From: Balanoglossus misakiensis
Taxonomy: Eukaryota; Animalia; Hemichordata
Length of the DNA stretch: 64,000 nt
Reading direction: 5' to 3'
Assembly (NCBI GenBank): GCA_040954595.2
Contig: CM082577.2
Span: 18,326,303 to 18,390,302 of the forward strand
Positions 35,081 to 64,000 of this stretch are shown here, in pieces. Within the stretch, counting starts at the first letter, position 1; each line of letters begins with the position of its first letter. A program made the position numbers and the translations under genes. Under the pieces are notes generated by a model, which was given only the letters and a program-made list of their open reading frames with translations, was not told where the DNA came from and ran no database searches.

Positions 35081-35122
<42 letters not shown>

Positions 35123-35629: not shown

Positions 35630-36781
35630 TTAACATAACAAGCGATTCATGTACACTAGCAGAGAGGAAAAAAGAAAATGGGAAGGCGACTTGGTAGTGG
35701 CTAACTGAGCCATTCGCTGGGAAACCGTCAAGCGTGTGGACAGGGGTATTTTGACGTAACGTTCATAGGCATTTGACCGCCAATCACCGTGAAGCTTGAT
35801 TAGGTCAGGTGGTACGCCTGCAGCGTGAGCCAGTGAGGCTCCCCCCCTGCGCAAACTGTGAGCAGAGTAGAGACTGCTGTCTTTGCCAACCTTCTTTAAT
35901 AATTTGCTGAGTGCAGATGAAAACGATGAATATGTAAGCGTAACAAGCTTCCCACCCTTGGGGTAAACAAAGGCTGGAGCATCTTTAGCCGATGTAACTG
36001 ATGCCAGCATGCGACGGAGTGCCGACACGGGGCACAAGGGGCTGCCTGGTAAAGCGGCTAACGGTATGAAAAGGGTGCGCTCATGGCACTGCAAGGTTTT
36101 GGACCAACGCACTGCAAGCATAACATGGCTATCTTTAACAACCAAATCCCTACGTGAGAGATGTCGCTTGCAGTCAAAGGAAGTCTTGGAAGGAGGAACC
36201 AGGTTTGACTTTCTGAGAAAGGCGAAAAAACCGATTAGAATGGCACACCAAACAACGAGTTGGAAAACATCACTAATGTCAATAACTGCTGCCATGTCCA
36301 ACAACATGGGAACTGTAATAGGCAACTTCTGAGTGGGCGAATGAACACTACTTTTACGAATGCCGGCCAGCGCTAACTTAAAGCTGAGGCACTCGAACCC
36401 CTCCAAGTTATAGCCGGTAAGAATGTGCAGTGTCTTAACCCCTGAAATATAATTGGAAATGGACACAGGGCTGCTAAAGGACCTGTTAAGGAACTGTGCG
36501 TAAAGTGCCAAGACTGTGGATGAAGCAGGGAGAGCTTGTAAGCCAAAATGGAGTGTGAAGCTAAGGAAGGAGCGAAACTGGGTATGCAAGTTGTCGAGAG
36601 TCCCCGGACGAAATGCTGCCAAACGAGAGCGCTTCACTTCTTGTCTGAGTAACTCTAGGTCCTGCTGAACATCTGTGGGAAGATTAGAATAAATCATTAA
36701 GAGTGAACAAGGACTCTGGAACAGGGGTTTCCTCGAGAGCACGTCCTCTGGTGAGATCAAAAAAGCAGTCTTGGTATGCAC
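35630..36781 (-). CDS. Tyrosine recombinase of the Ngaro element (true start probably near 36690)
   Basis: FFAFLRKSNL (R), WSKT (K), HSLRRGGA (HxxR), HGDWRSNAYERY (Y). The frame is open. Confidence 0.92.
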   Translation of the reverse strand: MHTKTAFLISPEDVLSRKPLFQSPCSLLMIYSNLPTDVQQDLELLRQEVKRSRLAAFRPGTLDNLHTQFRSFLSFTLHFGLQALPASSTVLALYAQFLNRSFSSPVSISNYISGVKTLHILTGYNLEGFECLSFKLALAGIRKSSVHSPTQKLPITVPMLLDMAAVIDISDVFQLVVWCAILIGFFAFLRKSNLVPPSKTSFDCKRHLSRRDLVVKDSHVMLAVRWSKTLQCHERTLFIPLAALPGSPLCPVSALRRMLASVTSAKDAPAFVYPKGGKLVTLTYSSFSSALSKLLKKVGKDSSLYSAHSLRRGGASLAHAAGVPPDLIKLHGDWRSNAYERYVKIPLSTRLTVSQRMAQLATTKSPSHFLFSSLLVYMNRLLC

Positions 36782-38648
36782 TGCCTAGGTGCCACCGGGA
36801 TAAGCAATCAGCGAGTTGATTCTGAGCGCCTGGTAAGTGCTGGGCTTTCAATTCAAACTGAAAGGATGCTGCAATAAACCAAAGTTCACGCGCCGCTGTC
36901 ATAAGGAAAGGGTCACGACCGCGACCAGCATTGAGAACCTTAACTGTGCTGGTATTGTCGCTGTACACCAAGATACGCAAGCCAGTCCATTGGCTCCCCC
37001 AAAGACGGGCCGCGACAACGACTGCGAGCATTTCCAAGCAGTGGATTGGGAGCCGTTTATGCAGAATAAGTTCTGGAAACGTTGAGTGGAAGTACTGCGA
37101 ACCGGAAAGTCCCCCGCAACCTGAAAGGCACGCGTCTGTGCAAACAATGCTGTTAGGAGCGGACCAAGTTAAGTCAGGCATGATAGAAATCCCATTGAAC
37201 TGCCTAATGAAAACAAGCCACCAATTAACATCTTTGTGAAACTGAGCATTTAAGTATATGTGGTGACTTGCGGACTCCACAGAGCGCAAGGTGTCCAGCA
37301 TGCGGCTAATGAAAAGACGGCCCGCGCGGATGCAGCCAGCAACAAAGGAAAGTTTGCCGATTAGAACTTGCAAGTCTCGGCGGGTGGCTTTCCTTCTGCC
37401 CGACCAATCAAGGAGCAGCTCAGTGAGCTCGGTCAGCCTGTCGTCTGTGACCTCCAATGTCATGGCTACTGTGTCAACCTGTATACCTAAGAAAGAGAGA
37501 CGTGTGGTCGGTGGAACCGCCTTACTGGTGGCTTCTTCGACACCCAATTCTTGCAGAAGTGACCGCAAGGCCATAAACGCAGGCTCTGAAAGTGCCGGTT
37601 TCTCGGCACCGCAAAAATCGTCCAAGAAATTAACTGCTCGAAAACCTAAATTGTTGTACATAGAAATAATAGTGTTAGTTGTGGCCTGGCATGCAAGCGC
37701 TGCCGAACGCAAACCAAAAGGCAGACGGAGGTCAATAAAAAGCCGACCCCGCCAAGTGTAGCCCAACAGGTGAAAGTCATGCAGGTCGACGGGTAACTGC
37801 CGGTACGCCCTGGGCAGATCAAGCTTGAAAAGGTGACACCCAGGACCCAGTTCCCTGATGAGAGCCACAAGTGAGTCAATATTTGGGTAACGAAGCTAAA
37901 AATGATGCCCCAGGAAAGTAGACTGAGAAATACCCGCGTTAACCGAAGTTACAGGGGGAAAGCTGAGGTCCATAATAGTACGTCTATCGGTGGACCCTTT
38001 CTTCGGCACAGAAGAGAGTGGGGATGTCGCCACGGGTAGTGAGAGGGAGTTGTAGTCAAAAGGACCAGCGGTTGCGCCTAGACTAACTTCAGTACAAACA
38101 AAGGAATCAATGTGCTGCGCAAAATGCAGGGCGGAACCGTGGTTGCGTCCGCTCGAAAGAGGAAACTGACTAGCGGTGAAATTGACAGGCCAGCCAAATT
38201 CCAGAAAGTCAATAAAAAGCGCACTGTGCTGATTGGGTAAACGTGCTCGCCAGGCGGGGATATTCAACGCTGATGGCACGGGAATGCGAACGCCCGCAAA
38301 GTTGGGCCTACCGGATGAAAAAACAATCTGATGCGTGTCGCGCAACCACTGCGGGGAAATACGGGCGCTTGGCGGCCAGAGGGGGATGCTGGGAGGGATC
38401 CACGCCGGTGTTTCTGGGGGGTTGAAACTACTGGTAGCCGCTGACTGGGAAAAAAAAGACTGGTACTGAAAGTCGTGTATACCCTGAAGTTCATGTGCTA
38501 ATGCAAGGGGAGTGGAAACAGATGGGGCAATTGCGAGCACGTACGTGCCATCAATATCAGGAGAATCCTGACAACAAACTACTGAATTCAAAAATACAGC
38601 GCTGTCAGCAGAAAGGTGACTACGGTCAAAACGTACACTATCCTGCAA
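36684..38648 (-). pseudogene. Ngaro RT-RNase H, broken by an in-frame TAG at 37896-37898
   Basis: IDFLEFGWP, KLDLPRAYRQ, LPFGLRSA, NFLDDF, TDACLSGCGG, CLEMLAV, SDN, LADCLSR. ORFs 37896-38648 and 36684-37868 are in the same frame. Confidence 0.9.
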
Positions 38649-38854
38649 AGGTACAAGTCTTCAAAAGTGAGAACATCACTGTACAAGTGGGCGCTAGGCA
38701 AACTATTAACATAACTGCGCGACTGAGAGGCAACAGAGCTACAAGGAATGGGTGGTGGTCTATCCAGACTAGTTTCATATAGCCTGGAATGTGGTGAGGG
38801 AGGAAACGAGACCGAAGGGCCAGAAAAGTCATCCCGTTTCCCCAAAGGCTGGAG

Positions 38855-40026
38855 TCATTCCTTGTTGCCCCCCTGCGTCTTTTCCCGAAATTCTTTCTCG
38901 TTATATGGACAATCGGCAGCGGCATGTTTCTTTTCTTGTTGCCTATAACGCAAACAGGCGGAACAAACATGTTTCTCCAAGATGCCTTCCACCATGTGAT
39001 CCTCAGCCTGAATACACTTGTGGATCTGAAAGGCGGAACAATACCTGGCACGACGGTTTTTCTTTGGCTTTGTGGCTGAGGTGGAAGTGCTCTGTGGAGG
39101 ATTTCTAACAAATCTAGTGTGGAGGTTATCAAAATCATCCTCCCAATTTAACAATCCTTGCTCCAAATATTGCAACACTACTGAGTGATATTTCCCAATT
39201 ATACAATTGTGCATCTATGACAATGTCTTGCAAATGAGTCAATCTATGCAAACTAGAGTCACTGCCAAACCCCATCCCTAAAATGATTTCGAGTTCACCG
39301 GCCACTAATTGTGGTAAGACAGTTCATCGTATGCCAAGGCCTCTGGCCTGTTTGGGTTTGGGTCGCGGACAAATTCATGTGGCCATGGAATGTACATCCG
39401 TACTCTGTCCGTTATAATGGCTTCCTCCTTGCGCCACTTTTCATGCGTTTACCTTTGGGAATAACATTCTGCAACGGGGATCGTCTGCTTTTGGCCTGTG
39501 TGCGAAGTTTGGTTCTGCCTTTCTTCGCTGCTCTTGTACCACGCTTGGTGTCCATATCATCGCTGCTGGAGCTGCTGCTTGCTTCGGATGCTGAAGTGTT
39601 GGACGAACCGCTCGATAACAAACGTTCGACGGAGTCCTGGAGAGCCGAGTCACGTCTAAGGTCGGCTAGAGTGGAACGAGGTTGCTCGGTCTTTTCCCGC
39701 TCACTAGTGGCTGTGACGTCATCGTTTTTAGGTTTCACAAACTTCATCACCTCGGAAATTTGGTGGAAAATCTCTCTTACTTGAGATGTCACAGAGTCCA
39801 ACTGCTGTTGCACTTTCGGGTCAGTCCCGGAACGCTTACTTGTAATTTTCTTGCGTGTCATTACGTTGTACATGTAAGCTGGCTGTTTTGGGCAGTTGCG
39901 CCGTCGGGCAACTGTATCCATTTCTGCTCGTTCTGCTACAGTTCCCGCCTCGAGTTCTGCGAAGGTATCTTCAACTTCTGATGTGGGCTGAGCCGATTCG
40001 GCCATTTCGGTGAAAATTAAAACCAA
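38855..40026 (-). pseudogene. Ngaro gag-like ORF1, frameshifted
   Basis: Segments 39412-40026 and 38855-39214 are linked by shifted-frame WPHEFV..YDELS..LVAGELEII. C-terminal Cys/His cluster YCSAFQ..C..H..HVCSAC..H..C. Confidence 0.7.
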
Positions 40027-40124
40027 GGAGAACTGAAGAGCTGTGGATACCGGTACCGGATCAGCAATATCAAAGTCCGAAAGCTTTTAAATATCTCAGT
40101 ATCTCAAAACCAGGCAGGAGCTTG

Positions 40125-40285
40125 ATCCCCTCAATAACGATGCCTAGAAAAGTAATTTGTTGAGATGGACCAACCACTTTATGCCATGCTATGTGAAAAC
40201 CTAATTTGCGGAGAAGCTTGAGTAAAGTGTTGAGCGCTAATTGGCAAGCCTGATAGTCAACTCTGTTTACATACGCAATAAACAT
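40125..40285 (-). pseudogene. Fragment of a second, divergent DIRS/Ngaro RT
   Basis: LLKLLRKLGFHIAWHKVVGPSQQITFLGIVI resembles LRSLLQELGVEEATSKAVPPTTRLSFLGIQV of the neighbouring RT. Confidence 0.7.
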
Positions 40286-41639: not shown

Positions 41640-42340
41640 ATGGAGGTCCTTCATTGAAGATCAGAGTGAAGTGGAGAGGATACCAGCCACCTCTAAGCTG
41701 TACAAGGAATACCAATGGCTGATGAGGCACCTGTGTCTTTCTAATGGTTGGGAGGTCCCAGAAAAGTTCTCGCTTAAGCCACCAAACTCCCAAGCTGTTA
41801 TCATCCATTGGAGAATTATCTCTATTTTGATTAGCAGAATTTCTCCAGAGCAAAGGAACCAGTTTCGTAAATTACTTGATTCATTCCATCGACAGCAGTG
41901 AGGTCTGGGGTAGGGTCGGCAGATATCGGAAATCCCGACCAATCCAACAGGGAAGACACAGACAGACCACAGGAGAGCCAACAGTCTAACATCACGATCC
42001 CAGTCCCAGCGAAAAAGATGGAGGCTGAGACACAGGAAACAGAAGTGTTACCAGAGGCATGGGATTCACATTTCCACCTTGATCGCAAAAGTAGATGCTT
42101 GTTTAGGAAAGTGACATCAGATGAGCTACTACAAGCACCAGATCTACCCATGCTGAAACATCCACTCCATCCACGGGATCGAAGTTTATAGCGAACCAGA
42201 CCAATATCCATCCGACCTCAACAGGAGAGAAAGATGGAAGGTCGCACTGGGGGTACATCCAGCGATTGACCGATGAGGGGTTCTGAAAGCTTGGAGAACT
42301 TACCCTGTCACCTGTGGTGATCGCCCTCGGAAAAATCATG
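41640..42340 (+). pseudogene. Degraded homologue of the Gypsy TatD-like accessory gene
   Basis: MRHLCLSNGWEVPEKFSLKPPNSQAVIIHWRIISILI aligns with MKRLCVFQGWEVPNKFPLNPPTTPAILIHWRVLSVLL (ORF 51089-52531). It continues with WDSHFHLDR and VALGVHP, with stops and frameshifts. Confidence 0.85.
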
Positions 42341-47345: not shown

Positions 47346-48151
47346 TGCAGCAGTTCAACTTTAGCAAGTACCCACATGCGATTCCCCGTGTTAGACTAAT
47401 GGGATTTGGTTTGAGGAAAGAAATAACAAACAACAAACAGAACGAGAATTACAATAGAGCGAGAATTTGTGGTAATTTACGAGACTTCGTTCGGCATGCC
47501 TCAGAATCGGTACAATTTCCTTTGATTGGTGAAGAATCGCTTGAACTTGCGGGAAAAATGAACGTATCCACAGGATTCACTAACCATCTATCCTTCCCAG
47601 GAGGCAGTGGCATGAAACACTGTGCGACCGTTTGTGAGTAGCGAGCGATTAATGGTCGCAATGCGTGGCCGCGCAGTTCTAAAGTAATACTCGCCCTACA
47701 GGGGAGAATACTACTCGCGGTTGCACCGGCCGTGTATATATTACCTACACAAAAGCGGTCGATGCTTATACTAACTATGACTAAATACTTAACCCTTTGC
47801 TGCCCAGGGCACCCTCATGCGCCCGACATGCGCTGCTGTCCAGAGCACCCGTATCCGCCCGAGATTTCCTTCTTCCGGGTTTGGGAAATTCCATCCGGGA
47901 TAGCACGCAAAGTACCCGCCTTTTGATTATGATAATGTGGTGACGTCTGGTTTATATCCGGGACCTTACTTTGACGTCAATGAATATGTATGTTCCCATT
48001 GGATAAATTTGAATTACAATCGTTTGAAGTTGTTTGCCGCCTACGCGTCACGGAAAATTATCATAACCGCTGACCTCTGTAGTGTAAAAATATTCACGTC
48101 GTGTACACTTTCCACTTTAACCTTTTACACGACCTATATTAAACAACAACA

Positions 48152-49849
48152 ATGGATCCCGGCCGTGCTAATGCGGAAGTAATGAGGTTTCTTTTGGACG
48201 ACGACGACGATGAAGAATTTCTCGGTTTTCCAGCGGAGGATACGGCCAGCGACATCGAAATCCGCGAAATCAACGATGCGCTGCGACAAGTTCTCGAGCT
48301 GGAGAATGAGAACGACTTAGAAGTCCCGGAAGATCTGCGTAACATCCCGTGGTCGGCCGATCTAGAAAATTTTGATTTACCAACATTTCTCGTAGGCGAA
48401 TCAGGGCCAAACCACAACCTGGCGGCAGGTTCTCAGCCTCTTGATTATTTTTTTTTACTGATTCCGCCGTATTTTATACGACGCTTGGCAGAGGAGACCA
48501 ACCGTTACGCCGATCAAAAACAGCGCGCGACGGGCATCGACCGCTATTGGTATGACACAAAACCCGACGAAATCAAGGCGTTCATCGCGATCAATATTTT
48601 GATGGGAATACACCAGCTTCCCAACATCAACTTGTACTGGTCGACTGATGACAGGCTTCAGGTCCCGGGCATAACCAAAATTATGACCAAAAACCGTTAT
48701 AAGAAGTTGTGTCAATACTTTCACGTCAACGATAACGAAGCCGACCAGCCAGCTGAAAACCCTCACCGAGATCGCATGCATAAGATCCGCCCGCTCCTCG
48801 ACGTCGTCCAGCTCACATTCCCGGCAAACTATGTCCCCTTTCGCGAGATTTCCATCGATGAGGGAATGGTAAAATTCAAGGGGCATAGCTACATGATTCA
48901 GTATCTGCCAGCGAAACCAATCAAATGGGGGTTCAAGCTTTGGATCATCGCTTGCCCCCGTACCGGGTACTGCCTCAACCTCGATCCGTACACCGGGAAG
49001 AAAGGTGGTCAAGTCGCCCAGAAAGGTCTGGGATATTCGGTTATTTGGCAACTGTCGCACATGTACCACAACATGGGGCACGTTTTATTTTATGATAATT
49101 TTTTTAGTTCAGTCGGGTTAGCCCTCGATCTGCTAAAATCGGGTACGCTTTGCTGCAGTACAGTTCGGCCAAACCGAGTTGGATTTCCCGTCGATCTCCG
49201 GAATGTAAAACTCGATAGCAACGCGTCAAAAACTCGCCAGTTTGGGAAGCTGACGGCAACTGTGTGGCAGGATAAAAGACAAGTTACCACACTCCAGCCT
49301 GAGTGTGTAACAACAAGACGGCGAGCCGGAGAAGTGTCCTGTCCCAAGAGTATTGTTGACTACAACAAATATATGGGCGGTGTCGACCTTTCAGACCAAC
49401 TCGCGACCTACTATCCTTTGGGCGGAAAGCACTTCAAGTACTGGAAGTACCTGTTTTGGTCCATTCTAAACAGGGCAATCTGCAACGCCTGGATTTTGTA
49501 CAAGATTGCCAATATTCCAGCTCCAAGACGAAGATACCGCCAGCTGGATTTCCGCCTAGATCTGTGTACACAGTTGACAGCTGGATTCAGTGGTAGAAAG
49601 CGACCAGGGCCATCACCAGCTCCTGTCCTACTTCCAGCGTCGCTGAGTGCGGATAATTTTCCCGGCCACCAGTGCACAAAATTGGACACTTCCCGGCAAA
49701 AAAAGGGCTGTGTTCTTTGTGCTAAGCAAAAGAGGAAGACGCAGTCTGGCAGAGCTGTCCAAACAACGTGGATGTGCTGCAATTGCAGAGTAGCCCTTTG
49801 CAAAGTCGACTGCTTTGCAAAGTACCATGCCATCCAGTACCAGGCATAA
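48152..49849 (+). CDS. piggyBac transposase (PGBD4-like), 565 aa
   Basis: DDD triad SIDEGM, FYDNFF, GGVDLSDQ; KPIKWGFK; C-terminal Cys-rich domain CVLC...CCNCRVALCKVDCFAKYH. No stops. Confidence 0.95.
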   Translation: MDPGRANAEVMRFLLDDDDDEEFLGFPAEDTASDIEIREINDALRQVLELENENDLEVPEDLRNIPWSADLENFDLPTFLVGESGPNHNLAAGSQPLDYFFLLIPPYFIRRLAEETNRYADQKQRATGIDRYWYDTKPDEIKAFIAINILMGIHQLPNINLYWSTDDRLQVPGITKIMTKNRYKKLCQYFHVNDNEADQPAENPHRDRMHKIRPLLDVVQLTFPANYVPFREISIDEGMVKFKGHSYMIQYLPAKPIKWGFKLWIIACPRTGYCLNLDPYTGKKGGQVAQKGLGYSVIWQLSHMYHNMGHVLFYDNFFSSVGLALDLLKSGTLCCSTVRPNRVGFPVDLRNVKLDSNASKTRQFGKLTATVWQDKRQVTTLQPECVTTRRRAGEVSCPKSIVDYNKYMGGVDLSDQLATYYPLGGKHFKYWKYLFWSILNRAICNAWILYKIANIPAPRRRYRQLDFRLDLCTQLTAGFSGRKRPGPSPAPVLLPASLSADNFPGHQCTKLDTSRQKKGCVLCAKQKRKTQSGRAVQTTWMCCNCRVALCKVDCFAKYHAIQYQA

Positions 49850-50045
49850 AATGGCCCTTTGCTTTTCACGGCCAACAAACGGCCCTTTTCAGGGCCATCA
49901 CTAGAAGTCACACTACTGTAAAAAAAATGTGACCCAAGCCAAACGGCCCTTTTCAGGGCCAACAAATCCTCCAAAAAGAGAATACCGAAAAATAAAAATG
50001 TAAGCACCCACTCTCAACAACACAAACACACACAAACGTATACAG

Positions 50046-50046
<1 letters not shown>

Positions 50047-50092
<46 letters not shown>
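50047..50092 (+). repeat. (CA)n microsatellite in the piggyBac 3' region
   Basis: Direct observation. Confidence 0.95.
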
Positions 50093-50094
<2 letters not shown>

Positions 50095-50794
50095 GACAGA
50101 AAGAAGGAAATGAAACCTTTAACTTAATAGTAAAAAGAAAGAAATTACTGTTAATAATGTGAAAAACTGACAAAGAGACCTGTAATTTAGTTTTATTTAT
50201 TCTCATTCAAAACTAATTTCCTCTTCACCTGAAACAGAAAGTGTAAAATGCACAAAACCTGCTTTCCATGAACTATAGTTGAATGGAAACTTTCTGGACA
50301 CATCACATGCCACACATCATTGAAACGGGAATTTTCAGAACTGTAAAATAAATTTTACCTGCTACAGTCAATTCCCAACCATTTTTGAGCAAATTCTGGT
50401 AAAAACACACACCTAATTTTGATTGCACAATCTCACTAATTCAGTGAAAAGTTCTGGGCTCCACTATGCATTGTTATGCAAATGAGCTGGGCTGCAAAGG
50501 GTTAACTATCTTAAACGCTATATAAAGGTGAGACAGAACTATATGTGAAAGCTTATAAGGATATTACTTACGTCTTGATAGATATCAGGTACAATTCGGT
50601 CTATCGGATCTCCAGCTCGTCGGAACGGCGTGCTTTCCCCAGGTCCGCCCACACTGCTGTTGGCCTCATCCATTGGTGCTGCCCCTGTCAGTCAGATCTC
50701 CGTGCTCCGCCTTCCACGGTCCTGGCTGGCTGTCGCCCTGGGCAACCTACTCCGGCTGCCAGTCATCCGGGGGTCCAAATGTAATTCCACTACA

Positions 50795-50814
50795 CTCGTC
50801 CTTCTTTTCTTTTT
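50795..50814 (-). promoter_or_regulatory. Polypurine tract
   Basis: AAAAAGAAAAGAAGGACGAG directly followed by TGT on the minus strand. Confidence 0.75.
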
Positions 50815-51088: not shown

Positions 51089-53322
51089 TCAGATCTGGTA
51101 CAGACGGCGGGCGTTTTCGGCCGTCTGCGCCAACAGCTGGCGAGTAGAGGTACCTCGCAGTCTGGCTACCTCAAGTGCTACGTCCCCAAGGAAGGCTGGA
51201 GTATTCATCCTCTGGGACTCCCACACGCGTCTGCTGGGCGACTCGGTCTCCACTAAGATCCGGTCCTCCGAGATAGCCTGCATGGCTTCAATCTGTCGCT
51301 CATCAAACTGGCGGACGGCTGCCGAGAACCCAAAATAGGTCTCGGGGAAGTACCGCCGCCAGTCTCCCACGGTCTCCATACATCCTCGGAAATCCCGGAG
51401 GTGGATCTGCTGGCGCTCGTCGCAGTGCCTGGTCATGGTTAGTAGAGTCCAGGCTGCCGTGTGTCGGTCATACCTGTCGTTGGAGGTTCCCCGGGCGGTG
51501 ATGACTACTGGCTTCCTTCCCGGGTTCATGGTTAACAGGTCTTCGAAGACCCTATCTTGGCCTTCCCAGGTGGAGGGGTCTTCCGTCCGGTCAAGTCCGA
51601 TGTCCCCTAGTGCGGCCACGTCTGGGCGCCTCAGAAGATTGCCGAGGGTCTGGCGTTGATCCTTGGTCATGTATGGTGCCACTCGTGGGTTAACTCCAAG
51701 GGCTATTGGAAAATCTTTTTCCCCCGGCAGCGGGTCCGGGTACCGATCCGGCTCAGAGAATACTTGTAGCCCTCCGAGGAGCCGGATTCGATAGTCTGGA
51801 AGGACACCAACATCGTAGTCAGTGAGGTCTTGTGGAGTTGTTGGAGCGTCCTCCACCCTACATTTCTCGGCGCAGGCCTGAGGGTAGAAGCAGGCATCGA
51901 TTCCCCCGGGTGTGGATGGGTCCCGGGCTGCTGTTTCGGGTGGCTGTGTCCGGGTTGCTGCTGGTCTCCGGGGCGGTTGGATTCTCCAGAACTCGTCCTG
52001 ACGCGCTTGTGATACCCATCTGAGCAACACGCTCAGCACGCGCCAGTGGATGAGGATCGCTGGCGTGGTGGGGGGGTTCAGCGGGAACTTGTTTGGTACT
52101 TCCCACCCCTGAAACACACACAGGCGCTTCATCATAACGATGCTCTCGGGCGAGCACAGGGATTCCGAAGGGATTTTTCCGGGTCCACCCCTACGAATGA
52201 ACAGATCCAACAGGTCGGGTATCTCTTTCCCGGGACCACATAGCCAGTAGGTCAGCTTTTCCAAAGCCTCCACCGCGTCCCGCTCGCGGAATACCTCTGG
52301 CCTCTCAACAAACAGTTCGGGAAGGTGACGGTGAAATACATGTTTCTTCAACTTCCGTGTTGACATCCGGCATCCCGGGAATGGACATGGAGAGGGGCCA
52401 TACGAGTAGCGTGGACCAGGGGGTGGGGAGTTTCTTCGGGTCGGCCTGGTGCTCCTCCATCGGTGTTCCTCCATCGGTGTTCGGTTTGTCTGGGCGGTTC
52501 CGGCGTTGGGTACCGGATAGGTGAACGACACCTGGGGCTGAGGTCTCCCCAGCGCGAATGGGATGGTCGTTCGCGGGAAGGCGGGCGGTCCCGCCTCTCC
52601 TCTCTAGCACGACCCGGTCGAGGCGACCGGGTTGGGGATCTGGACCTAGTGGGGAATCCGAGAAATTCCCGGAGATCCCAGGGGATATCGATTTCCCCCA
52701 CCTCCGACATCTCCTCCGGCGCTATAGGCCGGATCAACGGCTGCAGCGGTAGCGTCTCCTGGCGTGGGGGTGGTGGCTCCTGCAGAAACGGTCGGCCACT
52801 TTCTGCTCTTGGGGGTGATCCGTGGGTGGGGGGTGGTTCTGGCCCCTCCAACACCTCCATCGCCTGGTCTTTGTCGCCACCGAGTACCTGTCTCTCCTGC
52901 TGTGGGTCCGGGAAGATGCTGAGGGTTTCTTCCTGGTCGTCAGCTGCGGTGGTGGTTCTGGGGAGCTCTTGCAAAGAAAGACTGCCGACGAACCCTCCCC
53001 GTACTCGGCCTAGGTTGAACTCCCGGGGGACTGTGGTTTTCAGGGCTGTGGTGCGACTCTTCATGGCTATGTCGGGCGCGGGCAGATGGGCGTTAACTTT
53101 TTCCTCTCCGTAGATCCGGATGGCCTCCTCCCGTGCGATGGACATCCACCCCACGTCCCCAATTACGGTGGCCACTTGGAAGTGCTCGTGGAGCATTTCG
53201 AACATGGTGTCCTCGTCCATGCCGAGGTCTCTCAACCGGGGGATCACACTGATGGGGTCCAAGAGTTTCCCCTTGCCACATCGGAAACGGATGTCCTCCA
53301 ATTGACGTTGATTTGAATCCAT
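51089..53322 (-). pseudogene. Accessory ORF (~739 aa when repaired): helical N-terminal domain, Pro/Arg-rich linker, C2H2-like finger, conserved helical domain, TatD-like amidohydrolase fold
   Basis: ORFs 52348-53322 and 51089-52531 join in frame if the 14-bp tandem duplication CCTCCATCGGTGTT (52454-52481) is removed. TatD-like motifs ALGDIGLD, KPVVITAR, YFGFS, RILVETESP, TAENARRLY. Confidence 0.85.
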
Positions 53323-53369
53323 TCTGGGGGGGGGGGCAAAAAGAAAAGAAAGAAAATTAACGGTTAGTG
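53323..53369 (-). promoter_or_regulatory. Splice acceptor immediately upstream of the accessory ORF
   Basis: CACTAAC branch point, ~30-nt polypyrimidine tract, then CAG|A ATG. Confidence 0.75.
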
Positions 53370-53434
53370 GGTCCTCGTCGGTAACGAGTCATAGTCCTAC
53401 CCGATGGCAATTTCCCCTTTTTCCCTCTGTTCCC

Positions 53435-56400
53435 TTACTCATCGGTTCCCTCCCCCACGCAGTTCGGACAGTGAAAGGGGTCTGTCGATTTGACCTGTTT
53501 TGGGGAGAGATTGACGCAGGTGCTGTGAAACCAGTCGTAACAGCTGTCACACTGGACCATCAGCTTCCCGGTGTCCGGCCCACGGCAGACACAGTATGTC
53601 TGCCCCCGGTCTTTGTCCTGCGTGTCAGGATCCCCACCCTTCAGGGGTAGTGACCTCTTGAATTTAACTATCCAGCTGGGCAGTTGCGCGTCCCTGCACA
53701 GCTTCATTCTGTCGTGGTTTGCGGTGGCCATGCGTCTCGGAAATTTCACCCGGTACAAGTATGGCGATAGTTTCGCTATCACTATTCCTGGTCCTTTCCA
53801 TGGTGGGCTTAGTTTTTTACACTTCCCTCTCACGGTCGCTGAGTCCAGAAGGTAGACGGGGTCTCCGACTTCATATGAACTGAGACGGGCCTTCAAGTCG
53901 TAATCTCGCTTCATTCTTTCCTGGGTGACAACAGTTTTTCCCGAGCGAGCTCATGGGCTTCCTTCATGGTGCTTCCCAGGTTGCTCGCATATTCTTCAGG
54001 GTCTTGGGCTGGCGCTGGTTTCCCGAAGACCAGGTCGGCCGGTTGGTTCACTTCCCGCCCCAGCATAAGGCGATTAGGTGTGAATCCGGTATTTCGGTTT
54101 ACGGAGGTCCGAATGGCTCCGGCGATTTGGGGTAGGAATTTGTCCCACTCGTTCTGTTTGCCCTGGACGAAACAGCGAACTGCATCCATGAGGGTCCGAT
54201 TTTGCCGTTCCACCTGGCCGTTCGCGGACGGGCGGTACGGCGTGGTCCTAGCCTTGTGTATTTGGAGCAATTCGCATACTGACTGGAACAGCTGACTTTC
54301 GAAATTACTGCCTCTGTCGGTGAATATCTCAAATGGACATCCGAATCGAGAAAAGAATTCCCCTACGGCTGCCGTAGCGGTCACCTCTGCCGTTTGGCTA
54401 GGTAGTGGAATGCACTCTACCCATTTGGTGAATTGGTCGACCATGACTAGGATATATTCGTTTTTTCGGGGTGTCCGGGGCAGTGGTCCAAGAAAGTCCA
54501 GATGTACCCTTTCCATTGGCGATCCCACGTGGTACCGGGTCAGGGGGCACCTCGCATGCCGCTGTGGTTTCTTGTGCTTGTTGCAATCGTTGCATGAGGC
54601 TACGAAGCTGCGGACATCATCTGCCATCCGATGCCAGTGGTACTTCATCTGGAGTCTGGCCAGCGTCCATTGCACGCCCTGGTGTCCTGCCGAGGGGATT
54701 GCGTGATTCAGTTCAATTACTTCCGATATCATTTTTCTGGGGATGACCAGTTTTCCTTCGCCCTCGTCCTCGGATTTCCTCCGGAGTATTGGCATCTTCG
54801 GGTCCACATAGTATATTTCTCGGTTTATCCAGGCATTTTTTGCGGCGGGGCTGAGTAGTGCCAATGCGCTCTCTGCGGGAGTTTGGCCAGTATTCAGCCA
54901 TTCCAGTATCGGCCGTAGATCGGCATCTTCCCGCTGTCGTCGGTATATGGTGTCCAGGGTTTCCCGCCACGGCGTCTCGATCTCTGGCGAGCTGCTCCTA
55001 GTCACCGTGCATATCTTGGGGTCCTCTTTTTCCGCCTGTGTATCTTCACCGGAGGTCGTGTCCTCTCCCCTGAAGTCTATTCCGATTGACTTTAGTATTT
55101 CGTCGAAATCGAATCCTTCCCCGGGGTCCTCCGGGGGGTCTGCGAGGTGGTCATTCGTCTCGTCGTCTTCGTTGCCTAGGTTTACCGCGCAGACGTCTTG
55201 TCTGATGTCTTTGGATGGTTGTGAGGCTAACGGTATTACTTCGTCTACCTTGGTCACGAAATCTCCCCAATTTCTGTGCGCTCGTTGGCAATAATCACAG
55301 CCGCCGCAGGGAAGTTCGTCCGGCGTAACGTTGTGACGGTAGTGTCGGCACTGCCCCTGCGGTTCGATTCGGGATAAGGCATCAGCGTTGAGGTGTTTGT
55401 TCTCAGGCCTATGCTGAACCGTCATGTTGTACTGGCTAAGTTCCTCCAACCATCGGGCCAATTGTCCTTGGGGTTCTTTAAACCCCAGCAACCAGGCCAG
55501 ACTGCTGTGGTCCGTCCGTATTATGAAATGGTTCCCCAGCAAGTAGTGTCGAAATAACCGGGTAAATCGTACTACCGCTAGGAGTTCTTTTCGGGTCGTA
55601 CAATACCTTGTTTGCTCGGGTGTTAGCGCGAAGCTGGCGTACGCGATTACTCGCTCCCCTCCATCCTGCACCTGGAGAAGTTCCGCTCCCACGGCAATGT
55701 CTGATGCATCCGTGTCCAATATGAACGGGTCTTTTGGGTTCGGTAATGTGAGTACCGGCGCTGATGTTAAGCGATCTTTTAACGCTTCGAAGGCCAGCTG
55801 TTGCTCTTCGCCCCACTTGAAAGGCTTTTTTCCCGTAACTGTGTACAGCGGGGCGGCCAACTTGGCATGATCCTTTATAAACGAGCGGTGATAGTTGGCT
55901 AAACCTGCGAAACGTTCCACCTCCTTGGTGTTTTTTGGCGTCGGCCAGTTGCGCACTGCGTCAACGGAACGCGGGTCCAGTCCTATTGTTCCTTTACGGA
56001 CAATCCGCCCCAGGAATTCCACTTCCGTCTGAAACAGCTCACACTTGCGGGGGCGTAGTTTCAACCTGTATTCTCGTATCCGGGTGAACACGTCCCGCAG
56101 ATTCTGGAGATGGTCAGCAAAGTCCGCCCCAAGTACCATGATGTCGTCTAAGAATGCAAATACTACCTCCCATGTCAGCCCACGCAGCACCAGATTCATG
56201 GCTCGCGAGTATGTGGCGGGGGCGTTGCACAGGCCGAAGGGCATGCGGGCGAATTCAAACAGTCCGTACTTTGTGGTAAAGGCGGTCTTCTTGCGGTCAT
56301 CTTTGTCCACTTGTATCTGCCAGTACGCTGAATTGGCATCTAGTTTCGAGAATCATTCATTCCCGGCCAGCGTGTCCATGCAGTCTTCGATCAGCGACAG

Positions 56401-57972
56401 GGGGAATACGTCTTTACGGGTCACGTTTTTCAGCGCCCGATAGTCAACGCACCAGCGGACGGTCCCGTCCCTTTTCCTTACCAATACCGGTGCCGATGCC
56501 CATTCCGATGTTGAGGGTTGGATTACCCCTGACCGTAACATTTTCTTGAGATGGGCTTCCTCCTCCCCCGCGAAACGCAGTGGGGTTCGGCGCATCCTCT
56601 GTTTCACTGGTCGTGCATCCCCCGTATCGATACCGTGCGCAAGGGCGGTGAAGTTCCCCAGGTCGTATTCATTTGCAGCAAAGACATCCTGGAACTCCAT
56701 AAGTAGCTCTTTCATTTCCTGTGACTGGTTCTCCGTCAGATTGGCTGCTGATTTCTCGGCCAATTCTCTCAAGTGGTCTGGGAGCTCGTCTTCGCCATGC
56801 GGTGAAGCTTCCGTGAGTAGTTCAACCTCGCTGACTGTGCCTGTGGCGATTTCGATGTCTTTGGTTAATGTCCGAAGAAGCTTTCCCCCGACTGCTGTTG
56901 CCACTACTGTTCCCGGCGGTATTGTGACGTTGTCATCGGTCGGGTTTATTAAACAGATGATTGGGGGTTGCCCCTTTTTACAGAATGTCCGGGGCATAAT
57001 GAGGTCACCTAGTTTCACGGGCTCCACTATGTAGTTGGGCATGTCCATGTCGATTGTCCCTGTCACCCTGGTCACGGAGTTCGGAGACAGGATAGTGCGT
57101 GGAGTGACTGATATGTTGGCCACGTGCGTCACAGCGGTCTGGTCCCCTTGCAGCAACGGGAGCCGCTGTTCTCCCACCTGGAGGGTGTTTTCTCTCATGT
57201 CGAGGATGACCTGCTTGGATCGAAGTTGGTCTATTCCCAACAGCATGGTGTCGCCTATGGGGCCCACATATATATTTTCTCGAAAGGCAGTGCTCCCCAA
57301 CTTCAGGTTCACTGGTCCAATTTTGAATCCTCTCATGGACGAGTCTCTTCCGGCTAGTTGTACTTTGACATCGTGTATTATAGGCGGTTTCGGCTCTAGG
57401 GTGTCGTACAGCCTGTCGGAAATTATTGTTATTTCTGCGGCCGTGTCTAGGACGGCGAGAACCTCGGTCCCCTCGACTTCTACGGTGACTTTGTACATTG
57501 AACTTGGGGAGATTTTACGGATGGTCACGCTGGGGGGAGCGGTGGTGTCGCTTTGGTGGCTAAGCTCGATGGACATTGCCGGTTGGGGCTGCTGATTGCC
57601 GTCACTGGCTGGCTCGTTCTCCGAGTTTTCGATCAGCACCTCTTCCCGGTCGACGAGATATAACAGCTCCCTCTCTGAATTCTCTTCCAGCGCTTCAGTC
57701 ATCACTGCCCCGAGTTCCTCAAATTGTCCAAGTTCGCCATCGGTTGCTTCTCCGTCCGAGCCATCGCTGTCTTCTGATTCGGAATCAGTTCCCGGTGGAC
57801 ATACCGGGGGTAAGTTGGCATTGCTGGCAGACGGATTACGGCTCCCGGTGGCTCTGTCTGTAATGTTATTTTCGTCTTCCTCCACTGGCTCCACATCCGC
57901 GTTCCTCATAAGGCCAATTCCGGTGACTTGGGTCGGGCTTAGGCTTCTGTGACCGACCCGTACCGGTTTAAC
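53435..57972 (-). pseudogene. Gypsy pol: protease, RT, RNase H, integrase, PHD finger
   Basis: LDTAAEITII, MPFGLCNAP, FLDD, DTDASD, HH-CC integrase finger, HLDFLGP/TDRG/VERQNR, WKGP, YCVC..CDSC..WFH..C..CPNC. In-frame TGA at 56353-56355 (Trp expected) and a frameshift near 53928. Confidence 0.95.
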
Positions 57973-59357
57973 TGGCATTGAAAGACACGCGTTTCTGTGG
58001 GGGTTCTGGCTTGGTGTCCGTTGACAGACGCGGACAGTCCTTTTTGAAGTGGCCTTCCTGACCACAGTGGTAACATCCGCGGCTCCTGGGGGATGGTGAT
58101 CGGCTGGTTGTACGGGGTCGGTTGCCCCAGTTCATACGAGTTAGCTGATTAGTGAGCATTTCTACAGCAGTGCCCAGTCCGGACATCTGCGTTTCCACCC
58201 GGGCTAGGTGTGACTCCATCCGTGACAGGCGTCTATCCATAACAGGACTGCCCTCACTGGGTCGGACCTTGGGTTCGGTTGAGGGTGTGTCGCGCTTCTG
58301 TCGTTGGGGGGTGGATGCTGACTGTACTCGAGCTATCTCCTCGGCTTCTGAATCAGAACTGAGTCGGCGCACTTCGCGTTTTGGTGAGCGGCCTCCGAAT
58401 ATCTCTTTGTTGTTGTACTGGTACCAGCGTATCTGGTCGATGGCTTTCTCCATGGTCTGGGGGCGCTGTGTGGCTGCATTCAATCCAGCCTCTCTGTCGG
58501 CACAGCCCTGGCAGACCTTAATGATCGCTTGCCTAATCATCGCTTCCCCATCGCCATCGGGATAAGCTTGTGCTGCCAGGATGAGAACTCTGTCTGCCCA
58601 CTCTTCCAGGGATTCTCCTGTGTTTTGTCGGGATTGATTGAACTTCATTTGAGCGGCCTCTGGGAGTTCACAGTACCCAAACCTTTTCTCCATTTTTCGG
58701 ATTACCTCTTCGTAGGTGATGTTTTTCCCGGGGCCGGCGAGTGTTGTGTAAAACATACTGGCCCTTCCGTCGAGGCACCAGCAAAGTTGGCTTTTCCGTT
58801 CCCGGGAGGTCCACGCTTCGATATCCGCGTACTGCGTGAACTTGGTATAAAATGCCTGTCAATTTCCTCCCCCATTGTATACTAACGTCTTCGGCAGGTT
58901 GACAGATAGTTGACGGTGGACAGGGTGATCTGTTTTCCTGCTTGGGGTGTCGACATTTTTAGGGAGAGTGGATGTCTGCGTAGTTGTCACTGCTGAGGCC
59001 CCAGTTCGGGCGTCCGGGCTCTGCGTCCCCAGTGCTGGTCCGGGATCAGACTGATATTGTGGTGCTGCCCCCCGATAGGGTGGTGGGGGGGGGTATAAGG
59101 TAGCGACTGTCGGGACTGTGGCTGCTGCCGGAAGTATGGACCCCAGTTGTACTGGTTGGCATCCACCTGTTGCTGTTGTTGTGGTTGGGGATAGGCGCCC
59201 CAATTGTATCCGCTGACGTCCAGCTGTTGTTGTTGTTGTTGAGGGTGTGGTCCCCAACGGTACTTGCTGGCGTCTGGTTGTTGTTGCTGGGGTTGTGGCG
59301 GATATGAGCCCCAGCTGTTTTTAACGTCTGTTTCCTTTTGACTCTGGCCATACTGGG
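57968..59357 (-). pseudogene. Gypsy gag, disrupted
   Basis: Gln-rich repeats, capsid-like RQNTGESLEEWADRV, knuckle CYHCGQEGHFKKDC. In-frame TGA at 58859-58861 and at least one frameshift. Confidence 0.85.
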
Positions 59358-59538
59358 TGTGTGTACTGAGACATTTGATTACTTTGTGAATGGCGCCCTC
59401 TGTGTCAAGAGGTGGGAGGTGGGTAGCCTCGTTTTGGAAAAAAGACGCCATCTTGTTTTGGGGTGTTATTGTCGATGTCGAGCATGGTCTGATGTGAATA
59501 AAGAGTCCATAGAAATACAGTTGTGTGTAGACGTTTCA
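59358..59538 (+). repeat. Putative 5' LTR of the second Gypsy
   Basis: Ends in CA just before the PBS and contains AATAAA and CGCCATCTT. The TG start at ~59358 is inferred from where the opposite-strand gag stops looking gag-like. Confidence 0.6.
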
Positions 59539-59539
59539 A

Positions 59540-59553
59540 TGGTGGCAGCGGTG
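59540..59553 (+). promoter_or_regulatory. Primer binding site, tRNA-Leu type
   Basis: TGGTGGCAGCGGTG is complementary to the 3' end of metazoan tRNA-Leu(AAG/TAG). It lies 1 nt after the LTR-terminal CA. Confidence 0.8.
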
Positions 59554-59559
59554 TAAACG

Positions 59560-60417
59560 ATGGCCAAAAAAGTAGAATATTTCACCGGGGAGGAGAGAGG
59601 AGAACTGGAACCTTGGTTGGATAGATTCGATGCTATCATTGAGGCAGAAGGTAAAGAGAACAAAGCTGCAGCAATAATACGCACGTGTTTGAAAGGAGAT
59701 GCAGCGACCGTAATCCAATTGCTGTCGGTAGATGACAAAAAGGACATAGATAAGATAAAGGTAGAGTTGAGAAAACATTTTGGATTGAAGAGAGATGAAT
59801 TGTCAGCACAGCGGGAATTTCATTGCCGTAAACTGGAATCCGGGGAGAGCATTGGGAAGTTCGTGCGTTCCCTAAGAAAGCTTGCAATTGAAGGATTTCC
59901 CAAATGCGTTGGTAGCGGATTAGACTCAATTATCAAAGGTCAGTTTATCGTCGGTCTTCCTAGGGAATTGGGCGACCAGTTATCTGTTGCCTTACACTAC
60001 AAAGTTGCCGAAGCGGAGTTAAGTGAGGTCGTGGATTTTGCCACGAACTGGCAAAAATATCAGACAAAGGAGAACACTATTTCTGTTGACAACGTCATGC
60101 AAGTAGGGGAGGTCGATACAACCGTAAGTAGTGTGGTACGCGAGGCTGTTGAATCTGCAATTTCAAGCTTAGAGCCAACAATTTCAGCAATGGTTAATGC
60201 GCAAGTTAATCGGGTGTACGGAAACCAGAGCAACCAACAAAGAGGTAGTGGTAGAACCAGTCGCTCATCAACAAGGCCTGCACAGACAACTGGTAAGTGT
60301 TTTGAATGTGGACGGTTCGGCCATTTTAGAAGAAACTGTCCTAATCGGTTCCAGTGTTTCAAGTGTCATCGTTACGGACATAAGGCAGCCAATTGTCCTG
60401 AATTTTACCCAAACTAG
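59560..60417 (+). CDS. Gypsy gag, 285 aa
   Basis: WLDRFD, GESIGKFVRSLRKLA, QFIVGL and two CCHC knuckles. Confidence 0.93.
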   Translation: MAKKVEYFTGEERGELEPWLDRFDAIIEAEGKENKAAAIIRTCLKGDAATVIQLLSVDDKKDIDKIKVELRKHFGLKRDELSAQREFHCRKLESGESIGKFVRSLRKLAIEGFPKCVGSGLDSIIKGQFIVGLPRELGDQLSVALHYKVAEAELSEVVDFATNWQKYQTKENTISVDNVMQVGEVDTTVSSVVREAVESAISSLEPTISAMVNAQVNRVYGNQSNQQRGSGRTSRSSTRPAQTTGKCFECGRFGHFRRNCPNRFQCFKCHRYGHKAANCPEFYPN

Positions 60418-60451
60418 TGGGAGGTCGGGGCGCTGGCCAGCCCTTGACCTC
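60408..60451 (+). promoter_or_regulatory. -1 ribosomal frameshift signal (gag-pol)
   Basis: C CCA AAC heptamer in the gag frame, a 6-nt spacer and the stem GAGGTCGGGG...CCTTGACCTC. pol is in the -1 frame. Confidence 0.8.
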
Positions 60452-63400
60452 TGTTGAGAAGACGGCCATGGATGGTCTGTGTACTGATGATCTGGTGAGT
60501 GGCAATGTTCGGGGGACCCCGGAACTGCCTGTCCGGGGCCTTAGAGCCTGGGGATTGCCACATGACCAGAATCAGTATCATAGTCAACAAACTGTTACCG
60601 AACAACAAATGAACAACGATGAACTCTCACCCCAAATATTAACCACAATGACTTCACGCACATGCGGCGACCAATATAGGACTACGGGTATGATAAATGG
60701 AGTTGAGACGCCCATATTCGTAGATAGTGGTTCACAAATTACCATAGTCAGAAGTGATCTACCAGCCATAAACGGGTTGCCACTGTATCCTGTGAATATT
60801 CAGCCAGAAGCAGTTAATGGTACACCCGTATGCTTTGATGGCCAGGTACAAGTCGATCTTACTGTTCAAAATTTTGTCATTGGTCCAACATGGGTGTATG
60901 TAATGTCTCCAAAGCTCATGCGTAATGAATTCTTGATGGGAACGGATGTTATGGAAAAACTGGGAAGCATGGAAGTTGATTTTGTAAAGAAAACTGTGAC
61001 TTTCAAAGGACTGACACAACCTAATACTTACCTCAACAAACCTGTAAATAACAAGATGAACTTGAAACCACAGTGTTGCCGTGTGACATTACTACAACGA
61101 GCTGTTATACCACCTAGACATGAACAAATGTGTCATGTACTTGTCGCAGCTATACCGGGACAACAAGGACTCATTGAAGGTAGTGATCAGCTACTTGAGA
61201 AAAAACACGTCGCTTGTGCTGCCTCACTTAACACTTTGGATAAGGACAGAACAACCTGGGTTAGATTATGCAACCCAAATCCTATATCTGTTAAATTGTA
61301 CAGGGGATCCAGTATTGCCGAGTTCACGCCTGATGTTGGCCAACCCACAGTAATTGAACAAGTATGTGTTGAGAGCGACACACCTAAGCCAGAAAGTAAA
61401 CAGGACCATGAAACTATTGATTCTTTGATAGAAAGAACAGATGTGAACCAGTCACAAAAAAATGAAGTTCATAAACTTGTTGAGAGTTTTGAGGATGTGT
61501 TTTCATGGAAAGGTGAATTTGGAAGAACTCATATTATAGAACACAAGATACATACTGGTATTGCACCACCACTTAGATCAGGTGCTAGGAGAACGGGTTA
61601 CCACGAGAGGGAGAAAGTCGACAAAATGGTGACTGAGCTATTGGAAAAGGATGTTATTGAGGAGAGTTCCAGTCCTTGGGCTAGCCCAATTGTCCTTGTA
61701 CCCAAGAAAGATGGGTCCTTACGATTTTGCATTGACTTTCGTCGATTGAATTCGGTAACTAAGGATGATGCATTTCCCTTACCGCGTATTGACGATGCCA
61801 TAGACTGTCTTGGAGGGAGTAAATGGTTTCCCACGTTAGATATGGCTAGTGGCTACTGGCAAGTAGGTATGGATAAAGAATCTAGGGAGAAGACAGCATT
61901 TATATGTCACAAAGGACTATATCAGTTTAAAGTCATGCCATTTGGACTTAAGAAGCACCAGCTACATTTCAAAGACTCATGTCGTCCATTTTCAGTCCAG
62001 AGATGTGGCATGTTCTACTTATATATCTGGATGACATCTTGATTTTTTCATCAACATTCGAGCAGCACTTGCAACGAATAGAGCTGGTATTCAGAAAATT
62101 GCGTGAGGCAGGACTTAAGCTACAGCCACGAAAGTGTCATTTCTTTCAAACTGAGATTGAGTATCTTGGCCAGCTTGTAACTCGTCATGGGGTGTCACCC
62201 AGTCAAAGAATAGTCAGTGCTGTTGCAGAGTTTCCCACACCTACTTCAGTAACAGAGCTTCGCAGATTCATAGGACTTGCCTCGTATTATAGGAGGTTCA
62301 TAGCAGGATTTTCAACTATTGCAGCCCCGTTACACAAGTTGACTTCAAAGGGTGAGGTATTCATTTGGACAACAGATTACCAACAAGCATTCAGTGAACT
62401 GAAAACTAAGCTGTCAAGTGCTCCAGTTTTAGCATACCCTAACTTTGATGTACCATTTTCGCTGGTAACTGATGCCAGTGGGGTTGGAGTTGGTGCTGTT
62501 CTTGAGCAAACAGTGAGTGGTGTAACCCGACCAATAGCCTATGCTAGCTCAATTCTCACGAAAGCGCAACGCAATTATTCAGCGACAGAGCGTGAGTGTT
62601 ATGCGGTGGTCTGGGCGATTGACAAGTTTCGGAGTTACCTCTACGGAACTAGATTCAACATAATTACGGACCACAGATCATTAACTTTCCTCAAGTCAGT
62701 GAAGGAGCCAAGGGGCAGATTGGCACGGTGGCAGTCTGAACTGCAAGTCTATGACTATGAGATATTACACAGACCAGGCAAAGCCATACCACATGCTGAT
62801 GCACTTTCACGTGCCCCATTGATCGCAGTTACTACTGTTCAAGGGAAGTGGTCTTTTGACGAGTTGAAAGCGCTGCAAGAAACAGACCCAGTTATAAACA
62901 GAGTGCGTGACTTGGTTCGATTGAAACAACTCTGTACACCTGGTGATGGAAAACGAGTAAAGGAGTTAATGCTGCGTGCAAGAGGTCTTCATATTGACAT
63001 TGGTACAGGGCTTCTGTGCTGTCGATACTATGTTGGGAGGAGAGAATGTATACAGGTAATTTTCCCAGACTCTCATGCTTCTGAGGTTCTGCCAGTGGTA
63101 CATGATCAGGAGGGTCACTTGGGAATCAAACGCACATTAGCCAAACTAAAGAAGTCGTTCTATTGGCCGGAGATGAGACTTAGAGTACAGGAGTGGTGTC
63201 GCAGCTGCATACAGTGTAATCAGAACAAGTTGCAACTGAGAGGAAAAGCCCCATTGCAACGTATGCCTGAACCAACTCGACCATTTCAATGGGTCAGCAC
63301 TGATGTATTTGGACCCATCCCAGCCACCAAGAAAGGAAATCGCTACATTGTAACCATAAATGATGGCTTTAGTAAATTTGTTGTAGCTAAAGCAATACCC

Positions 63401-64000
63401 AATCAAGAAAGTTCTACCATAGCAGAAATATTCATCAATGATTGGTGTTTGTTGTTTGGTCCACCAGAGACATTACACAGTGATCAGGGACGAAATTTCG
63501 AAATTAATCTCCTGTCTGAGGTGTGCAGAATGTTCAACACATCAAAAACAAGAACATCAAGTTACCACCCATCTGGAAATGGACAAACAGAACATTTCAA
63601 CCTTACTTTGGCTGACATGTTAAAGAACTATGTTAACGAGTGTCAAGACAATTGGGATGACCATCTACCAAAAGTCATCCACACCTATAACACGAGTGAA
63701 CATGATGCTACCGGGCATACACCGTATTTCTTACTGTACGGTCAGGAGGTTAGAACTGCATTGCAGCCAGTACCCACAGACACAGTCAATTCAAGAGGTT
63801 TGTGTACAGCCCGGGACAGGGTCAAAGATCATTTTGACAAACTCACCAAGGCCAGAAAACTGGTGTATGATAGACTGGCTAAATTGAGAGACAGACGTTG
63901 TGAGAAGTCAAAGATAAACAGCCGATTCTGTAAATACAATGTTGGTGACAAAGTTATGGTTGCTAACAATGCCAGAAGGAAGGGACGTTCACCTAAACTC
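60414..64000 (+). pseudogene. Gypsy pol (PR-RT-RH-IN) with a 1-nt deletion near 61952; runs off the window
   Basis: FVDSGSQITI, LDMASGYWQ, MPFGLK then shifted APATFQRLM, YLDD, VTDASGVG, HDQEGHLG..CIQC, TDVFGP, HSDQG. Confidence 0.92.

Follow-up and report, generated by a model that had tools for sequence, protein, structure and literature searches.

In the genome of the hemichordate Balanoglossus misakiensis, a Ty3/Gypsy retrotransposon carries a third open reading frame (ORF3) behind pol, and the locus raises the question of whether this gene was passively captured or belongs to the expression programme of the element. The element lies on the minus strand of the 64,000-nucleotide stretch of DNA analyzed here, referred to as the window. 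The original prediction described an env-like splice acceptor in a 110-bp gap after pol, composed of the motif CACTAAC, a pyrimidine tract and an AG one base before the ORF3 start codon, and regarded the cargo as wired into the expression of the element. All three motifs are present on the minus strand at the predicted positions, within a gap that measures 112 nt. Sequence comparisons indicate that this strong 3′ splice-site motif likely serves a spliced subgenomic mRNA for ORF3.

The Gypsy element and its ORF3 protein

Pfam searches identified gag (PNMA, zinc knuckle), protease, reverse transcriptase, RNase H, integrase and a C-terminal PHD finger, arranged in the order of Ty3/Gypsy elements. 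The element has the following features:

57968..59451, minus strand: gag (PNMA/Retrotrans_gag, zinc knuckle), broken near 58860-58990
53435..58131, minus strand: pol (protease, reverse transcriptase, RNase H, integrase, PHD finger), with an in-frame stop at 56353-56355 and a frameshift near 53911-53950
52348..53322, minus strand: 5′ part of ORF3 with its own ATG, a helical conserved N-terminal domain (about residues 1-100) and a Pro/Arg/Ser-rich linker
51968..52414, minus strand: ORF3 middle domain, C-x4-C...H-x4-H, mainly helical, without a Pfam match, modeled with confidence
51089..51905, minus strand: ORF3 C-terminal TatD-fold domain, with all six metal-ligand positions substituted
50795..50814, minus strand: polypurine tract before the 3′ LTR
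50506..50794, minus strand: first ~290 nt of the 3′ LTR, starting with TGTAGTG, with CCAAT at nt 119 and a GC box at nt 145; cut by piggyBac; present at multi-copy depth

The genomic copy is defective, with breaks in gag, pol and ORF3 and a missing 5′ LTR, and ORF3 mRNA would therefore come from other copies. No 5′ LTR of the element was found in the window, where a second, plus-strand Gypsy element abuts the gag start; terminal repeats are present in the related loci L012 and L029. The second element (59452-64000) is placed head to head with the first, with about 110 nt between the two gag start codons. Its LTR is very short or truncated, and a primer-binding-like site is located at 59540 on the plus strand. 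The piggyBac transposon, at about 47789-50505, sits in the 3′ LTR of the first element, encodes an uninterrupted transposase of 565 residues (PF13843) and displays a TTAA duplication.

The ORF3 of the window copy is split by a frameshift in the Pro/Arg/Ser-rich linker, and its relatives are single proteins of 759-1102 residues. The named relatives are molluscan, from oyster, mussels, zebra mussel, abalone and mud snail; annotated examples are XP_052266585.1 and XP_056014015.1. A Dreissena cluster has 20 members, the 15 listed of which are spread over contigs of nine different lengths, in keeping with a mobile family. A hidden Markov model built from the N-termini of 15 relatives, with the window sequence excluded, matches the window frame exactly from the ATG at 53322 (E 3.9e-8); by this profile match, the ATG is the true start of the conserved N-terminal domain. 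The profile of the middle domain retrieved 423 clusters (50% identity) at E≤0.001, and TatD is carried by 25 of the 30 longer hits chosen for a Pfam scan, none of which has a gag, reverse transcriptase or core integrase domain. The middle domain of the window copy has a confident AlphaFold model (pLDDT 95). Foldseek searches of the PDB and of viral structures produced no match to its fold at E≤0.001, and the best Z score in VIA was 3.7, which is no demonstration of a new fold.

The C-terminal part of ORF3 matches TatD_DNase (PF01026, E 4.7e-23), and its sequence matches in the PDB are 2gzx, 6l25 and 1yix. The AlphaFold model of the relative P0001 consists of three folded domains connected by disordered linkers, and Foldseek recognized a TatD TIM barrel in the model (E 4e-13). 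TatD is the only domain that Pfam assigns to ORF3; the signal peptide and transmembrane segment of a fusion glycoprotein were not found, and none of 30 sequences reaches a Kyte-Doolittle value of 1.9 over 19 residues. The predicted ORF3 product is a soluble TatD-fold protein, not an envelope protein. The label env-like in the original prediction holds for the inferred mode of expression, but fails for the product, which has a TatD fold and no hydrophobic segments.

The metal ligands of TatD are H6, H8, E92, H128, H153 and D204 in the published numbering (PMC7201278). None of these six ligands (HxH, E, H, H, D), which characterize group II nucleases, is kept in the window copy. The equivalent residues are C, Y, D, T, R and E, respectively, and the equivalent of E202 alone is retained. 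Of the 66 aligned TatD stretches from the family, a few of them near-duplicates, 48 keep all six ligands. The closest relatives of the window copy, P0018 (Ostrea edulis cluster) and P0021, keep two ligands, and the HxH motif is present in most ORF3 relatives. It is likely that most relatives make an active two-metal TatD nuclease, and that the window lineage makes a catalytically weakened or dead version that binds nucleic acids; we hold both views less firmly than those on expression.

Two further occurrences of family domains were observed. The Mytilus protein P0029 cluster contains the middle domain within gene models of 2000-2600 residues that end in an EF-hand, PDCD6-like region, and these models represent either a domesticated fusion or a merged annotation. 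A degenerate second fragment of the ORF3 family, comprising the middle domain and the TatD start with HxH, lies at 41650-42340 on the plus strand of the window, contains stops and frameshifts, and has no pol beside it.

The acceptor motif and its conservation

The stop codon of pol (53437-53435) and the ATG of ORF3 (53322-53320) delimit the 112-nt spacer that contains the acceptor motif:

53363..53369, minus strand: branch-point motif CACTAAC with the branch A at 53364 (position -41); identical in the contig common to both subfamilies
53356-53360, minus strand: second branch-point pentamer TTAAT with the branch A at -34
53326..53356, minus strand: polypyrimidine tract, T-rich from 53356 to 53337, followed by 11 C at 53336-53326; the length of the C run differs among copies
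53323..53325, minus strand: acceptor AG (53325-53324) and first base of the predicted exon (A 53323), unchanged in both subfamilies

The single base A 53323 separates the acceptor AG from the ATG. The site has the build of a U2-type 3′ splice site, with a YAG following a polypyrimidine tract and an AG-free zone; no further AG occurs in the 50 nt upstream of the acceptor AG. U2 branch points are typically located about 18-40 nt upstream of the acceptor. CTAAC is positioned at -41 and TTAAT at -34 in the window. The run of 11 C is particular to the window copy and is 4 or 6 bases shorter in contigs of other copies, which brings the branch A of CTAAC to about -35 to -37.

Thirty-two of the 35 bases upstream of the acceptor are pyrimidines, compared to at most 24 at the other 639 AG sites on the sense strand of the element (rank 1 of 640), a strand with a T content of only 17%. 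The best sites of 900 sequences simulated by Markov models of orders 1-3 had at most 30 pyrimidines, and none of the 900 matched the acceptor. On the minus strand of the whole window, the acceptor is outscored by only two sites, both at a poly-T run. Since the tract is rich in purines on the antisense strand only, it was not interpreted as a polypurine tract. A separate purine-rich run directly behind the pol stop (53409-53434, minus strand) resembles a second or relic polypurine tract and is not evident in relatives. The splice scores used throughout were obtained from simple matrices set by hand from consensus values, not trained on the host.

Copies were compared using DNA contigs of one sample, possibly the source of the window, in which two DNA runs contain the element; the comparison was restricted to contigs at least 80% alike. 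Seven contigs from run X1 cover the region 53230-53500 and fall into two types, one window-like at a depth of 125-222 and one diverged at a depth of 384-463. A 41-nt contig (53337-53377), without any difference from the window, is common to both types. Within the ORF3 start, 17 of 83 positions are changed in the diverged type, as are 15 of 120 upstream. In the acceptor zone, the diverged type has one substitution in 52 aligned nucleotides, a sense C to T that preserves the pyrimidine, in addition to a shorter C run; the AG and ATG are unchanged. Relative to the flanks, which are 12-20% different, the acceptor zone is conserved with a binomial P of 0.0014 when the flanks are pooled and 0.02 against the non-coding spacer alone; the left-right linkage of the diverged contigs was inferred from depth, and two unlisted substitutions were placed in the left flank on the basis of overlap. 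Recombination between the subfamilies could also homogenize such a short stretch. No joints among the DNA contigs involve 53323.

A scan of metagenome contigs with a TatD motif specific to the family identified 26 loci, 21 of them with family domains; the other five (L011, L013, L017, L019 and L024) had no family hit. Ten of the 26 were excluded because they are too short or located too far downstream to include the start of ORF3; ten other loci reach this start. The integrase-PHD region directly precedes ORF3 in nine loci, which favors an old and stable carriage of ORF3 over recent passive capture. ORF3 occupies the env position behind a conserved acceptor: a pyrimidine tract with YAG precedes it in 10 of 10 loci, ranking 1-6 among 194-973 AG sites per locus, and is located 13-280 nt behind the pol stop. 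The acceptor is 1-14 nt from the ATG in eight of the ten, and loci L025 and L030 share the one-base spacing of the window. In L012, the acceptor follows the pol stop by 42 nt and precedes the ATG by 396 nt; in L029, these distances are 37 and 220 nt. Short upstream ATGs lie between acceptor and ATG in both loci. A branch-point pentamer was found at 7 of 11 sites, in some cases at -42 to -48.

The conservation among copies that the original prediction had called for is thus observed both within the sample and between families; the best local DNA alignments of these families are only 63-80% identical. The spacers themselves are not alignable among loci, except for two hits of 12-13 nt, and the median amino-acid identity among the elements is 46% in the integrase C-terminus and PHD finger and 35% in TatD. 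The N-terminal model did not confirm the ATGs of L009, L021 and L028, where the best site was picked post hoc. Among the eight ATGs fixed by the model, including that of the window, six have a site scoring at least 6 within 20 nt, as opposed to 3% of 972 other ATGs (P 2e-8). Shuffling the 60 nt upstream at each locus of this set gave a combined P of 8e-6. The acceptor is real and conserved, and very probably functional.

The co-divergence of pol and ORF3 is weak, with a Mantel rho of 0.38 (p 0.035, nine loci) for the middle domain and 0.30 (p 0.14, eight loci) for TatD. Searches of viral contigs returned no relative among 31 pattern matches when the middle-domain alignment was used and no matches to the family motif; with the full alignment, five loci matched the TatD part only (E 2e-14 to 6e-6). 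Locus L015 is a rearranged derivative, in which the end of gag is followed by the middle and TatD domains of ORF3 without pol. Its interpretation as a retro-copied spliced RNA was considered and rejected; the gag end is followed by rearranged sequence, and both pol and the N-terminal domain are lacking.

Candidate donor and the proposed expression of ORF3

The distance of 1-14 nt between acceptor and ATG covers all three phases, which excludes a shared coding first exon and agrees with a non-coding one. Among 19 sequences examined, nine contained an LTR start, defined by a polypurine tract followed by TGTNGT (with the number of purines relaxed from 12 to 11 after the first pass). In all nine LTRs, the highest-scoring donor of the initial 290 nt is located at nt 127-242 (combined shuffle P 1.6e-5; p for single LTRs ranges from 0.002 to 0.34). 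Six of the nine contain GTAAG, a count attained in 3 of 2000 shuffles, and in eight the A+T content is higher after the donor than before it. The site in the window is:

50566..50571, minus strand: candidate splice donor GTAAGT at LTR nt 224, with a shuffle p of 0.34 alone and supported by its position across nine LTRs

The CCAAT and GC boxes precede this candidate donor, and an antisense site outscores it. The copy of the donor in use would be that of the 5′ LTR, which is absent from the window. The LTRs of L012 and L029 appear to exceed 1.2 kb and to extend as far as the gag ATG, which leaves the LTR as the only place for the donor of a non-coding first exon. In the clade of the element, the gag start codon seems to be placed directly behind the LTR without a separate leader (contig ends of L012 and L029, and 59452-59535 of the window), and the LTRs contain tandem repeats. 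An acceptor before gag was seen in two of four elements, with only a moderate score. The sequence TAG/GTAATA at 47744, beyond piggyBac, was dropped as a donor, because the stretch is not demonstrably LTR and the relatives point to nt 127-242.

We hypothesize that transcription starts early in the 5′ LTR, and that a short non-coding exon, ending at the donor about 220 nt into the LTR, would be joined to the acceptor before ORF3. Gag-pol would be removed as an intron and ORF3 translated from its own ATG, while the unspliced RNA would remain the genome and the gag-pol message. The weakest step concerns function: the nuclease of most relatives may have cDNA or RNA intermediates of the element itself as substrates, and the ORF3 of the window lineage may be a binding-only derivative. 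The conserved acceptor, the fixed ATG, the recurrent LTR donor and the gene order support the proposal that the cargo is wired into the expression of the element, not passively captured.

It is also conceivable, at rather long odds, that the acceptor is real and its partner lies elsewhere, either as a donor in gag or the leader, or in a short intron downstream of an internal promoter located late in pol. Sites with comparable donor scores are present in gag-pol (57177, 56481 and 57804) and in the spacer (53400, 77 nt upstream), and the LTR donor of the window is weak alone. Errantiviruses have a conserved acceptor, and no conserved donor was apparent in them (PMC13669377). A coding gag exon is nevertheless incompatible with the varying phase between acceptor and ATG, the spacers of 27-64 nt in L026, L009 and L008 leave little room for a promoter and an intron, and all nine LTRs identified have a donor-like site in a comparable position.

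The proximity of the acceptor to pol in all loci would suit a splicing event in which the pol stop is eliminated and integrase-PHD is joined to ORF3 in one polyprotein. We consider such a fusion very improbable, because the single donor-like site in the vicinity (53400) is downstream of the pol stop, the phase between acceptor and ATG is not conserved, and the conserved domain begins with a separate ATG in every confirmed relative. Furthermore, the 165 proteins examined contain no gag or pol domain: a phmmer search with the window gag and pol gave no match among them, which is weak evidence since many come from gene callers without splice modeling, and no longer pol-fused forms of the middle domain occur among 69 candidates, which is also weak evidence.

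Equally improbable is a role of the tract as a pyrimidine-rich translation element, by which ribosomes would enter internally or re-initiate on the full-length RNA, or as an ORF3 core promoter. There is a precedent in the Drosophila MDG1 group, whose sORFs are on transcripts without evidence of splicing (PMC11952523). However, at all 11 sites the YAG that terminates the tract is preceded by 18-54 nt free of AG, and the two sites 220-396 nt from the ATG fit an exon boundary better than a start-site element. A chance low-complexity sequence, or a dead intron end captured with a host TatD exon, is largely refuted despite the unstable C run and the post hoc choice of the best site in three loci, since the signal is kept across elements with spacers that share no alignable sequence and precedes the element-specific N-terminal domain instead of the TatD domain.

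Relation to known systems

The use of a spliced message for a third gene, as favored here, is a known mechanism. In errantiviruses, the env message is a spliced subgenomic mRNA whose acceptor is well conserved (PMC13669377). The element resembles errantiviruses (Drosophila gypsy, Tirant and Kuruka) and simple retroviruses (MLV and RSV) in its env-type acceptor and in the ORF3 splicing predicted from sequence. It differs from them in its product, which is a TatD fold without a hydrophobic segment in 30 of 30 sequences instead of an envelope protein, and in the candidate donor, which lies inside the LTR. The site would work like an env acceptor, but the element is not an errantivirus.

The Juno and Vesta elements of bdelloid rotifers have ORF3s that encode a DEDDy exonuclease or a GDSL esterase and are reported to be typically expressed from spliced messages (PMC5408684), and share with the present element a nuclease-type enzyme in the env slot. 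The ORF3 described here differs in having a TatD TIM barrel instead of DEDDy, two extra unnamed domains, and a loss of ligands in a sub-lineage. The term TatD is absent from the main text of PMC5408684. Cer1 of C. elegans expresses the non-env CERV from a spliced mRNA, and the acceptors before its initiator ATG are conserved across species (PMC10309623). CERV is similarly a non-env frame in the env position, but has five exons, shares gag sequence and exports genomic RNA. The unspliced sORFs of Drosophila MDG1 elements are a counter-example (PMC11952523).

TatD proteins have been divided into groups, with the HxH motif in group II (PMC10085689). Similarly to the group II proteins YcfH, YjjV, TATDN2/3 and S. 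aureus TatD, ORF3 matches PF01026 and has HxH in most relatives. Unlike in these nucleases, the TatD part of ORF3 is the C-terminal module of a retrotransposon protein of 750-1100 residues, and the window copy is devoid of the ligands. The available parts of PMC6431247, PMC2836005 and PMC6238403 contain nothing on a TatD ORF3. No TatD-bearing LTR element was found in the literature searched, which lay outside Repbase entries, most subscription journals and all supplements, and an earlier description may exist. The mechanism is thus known from env and the rotifer nuclease ORF3s, and the TatD cargo is apparently undescribed.

We tentatively speculate that the window copy belongs to a so far undescribed clade of invertebrate Gypsy elements that is both old and widespread and has a two-message programme in the manner of retroviruses, in which a short non-coding exon within a long LTR would be spliced over gag-pol to an ORF3 composed of two unnamed domains, one of them a probable zinc-binding fold for which no structural match was found, and TatD. 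Some lineages, that of the window copy among them, may have turned the nuclease into a non-catalytic nucleic-acid binder, possibly shielding cDNA or countering host silencing. Spliced third genes are known; here, the junction base is predicted precisely, and a candidate LTR donor is provided for the whole clade. Hundreds of TatD-domain proteins annotated as uncharacterized are probably accessory genes of retrotransposons rather than host DNases. Why retroelements keep enzymes in the env slot has been asked for the rotifer elements (PMC5408684), and the relatives described here, if confirmed, would offer a natural pair of active and dead nucleases for addressing this question.

Two other repeat regions were noted in the window. 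Positions 1-22000 are occupied by arrays of satellite-like repeats of 237-239 bp, organized in higher-order blocks and partly inverted. The minus-strand region at about 35000-40130 is a probable DIRS/Ngaro-type tyrosine-recombinase retroelement. Pfam gave no hit on this retroelement; it contains an open reading frame of 355 residues (35630-36697) with the motifs HSLRRGGA and GDWRSNAYERY, a weak reverse transcriptase match at 37614-37826, and sequences that repeat at its ends.
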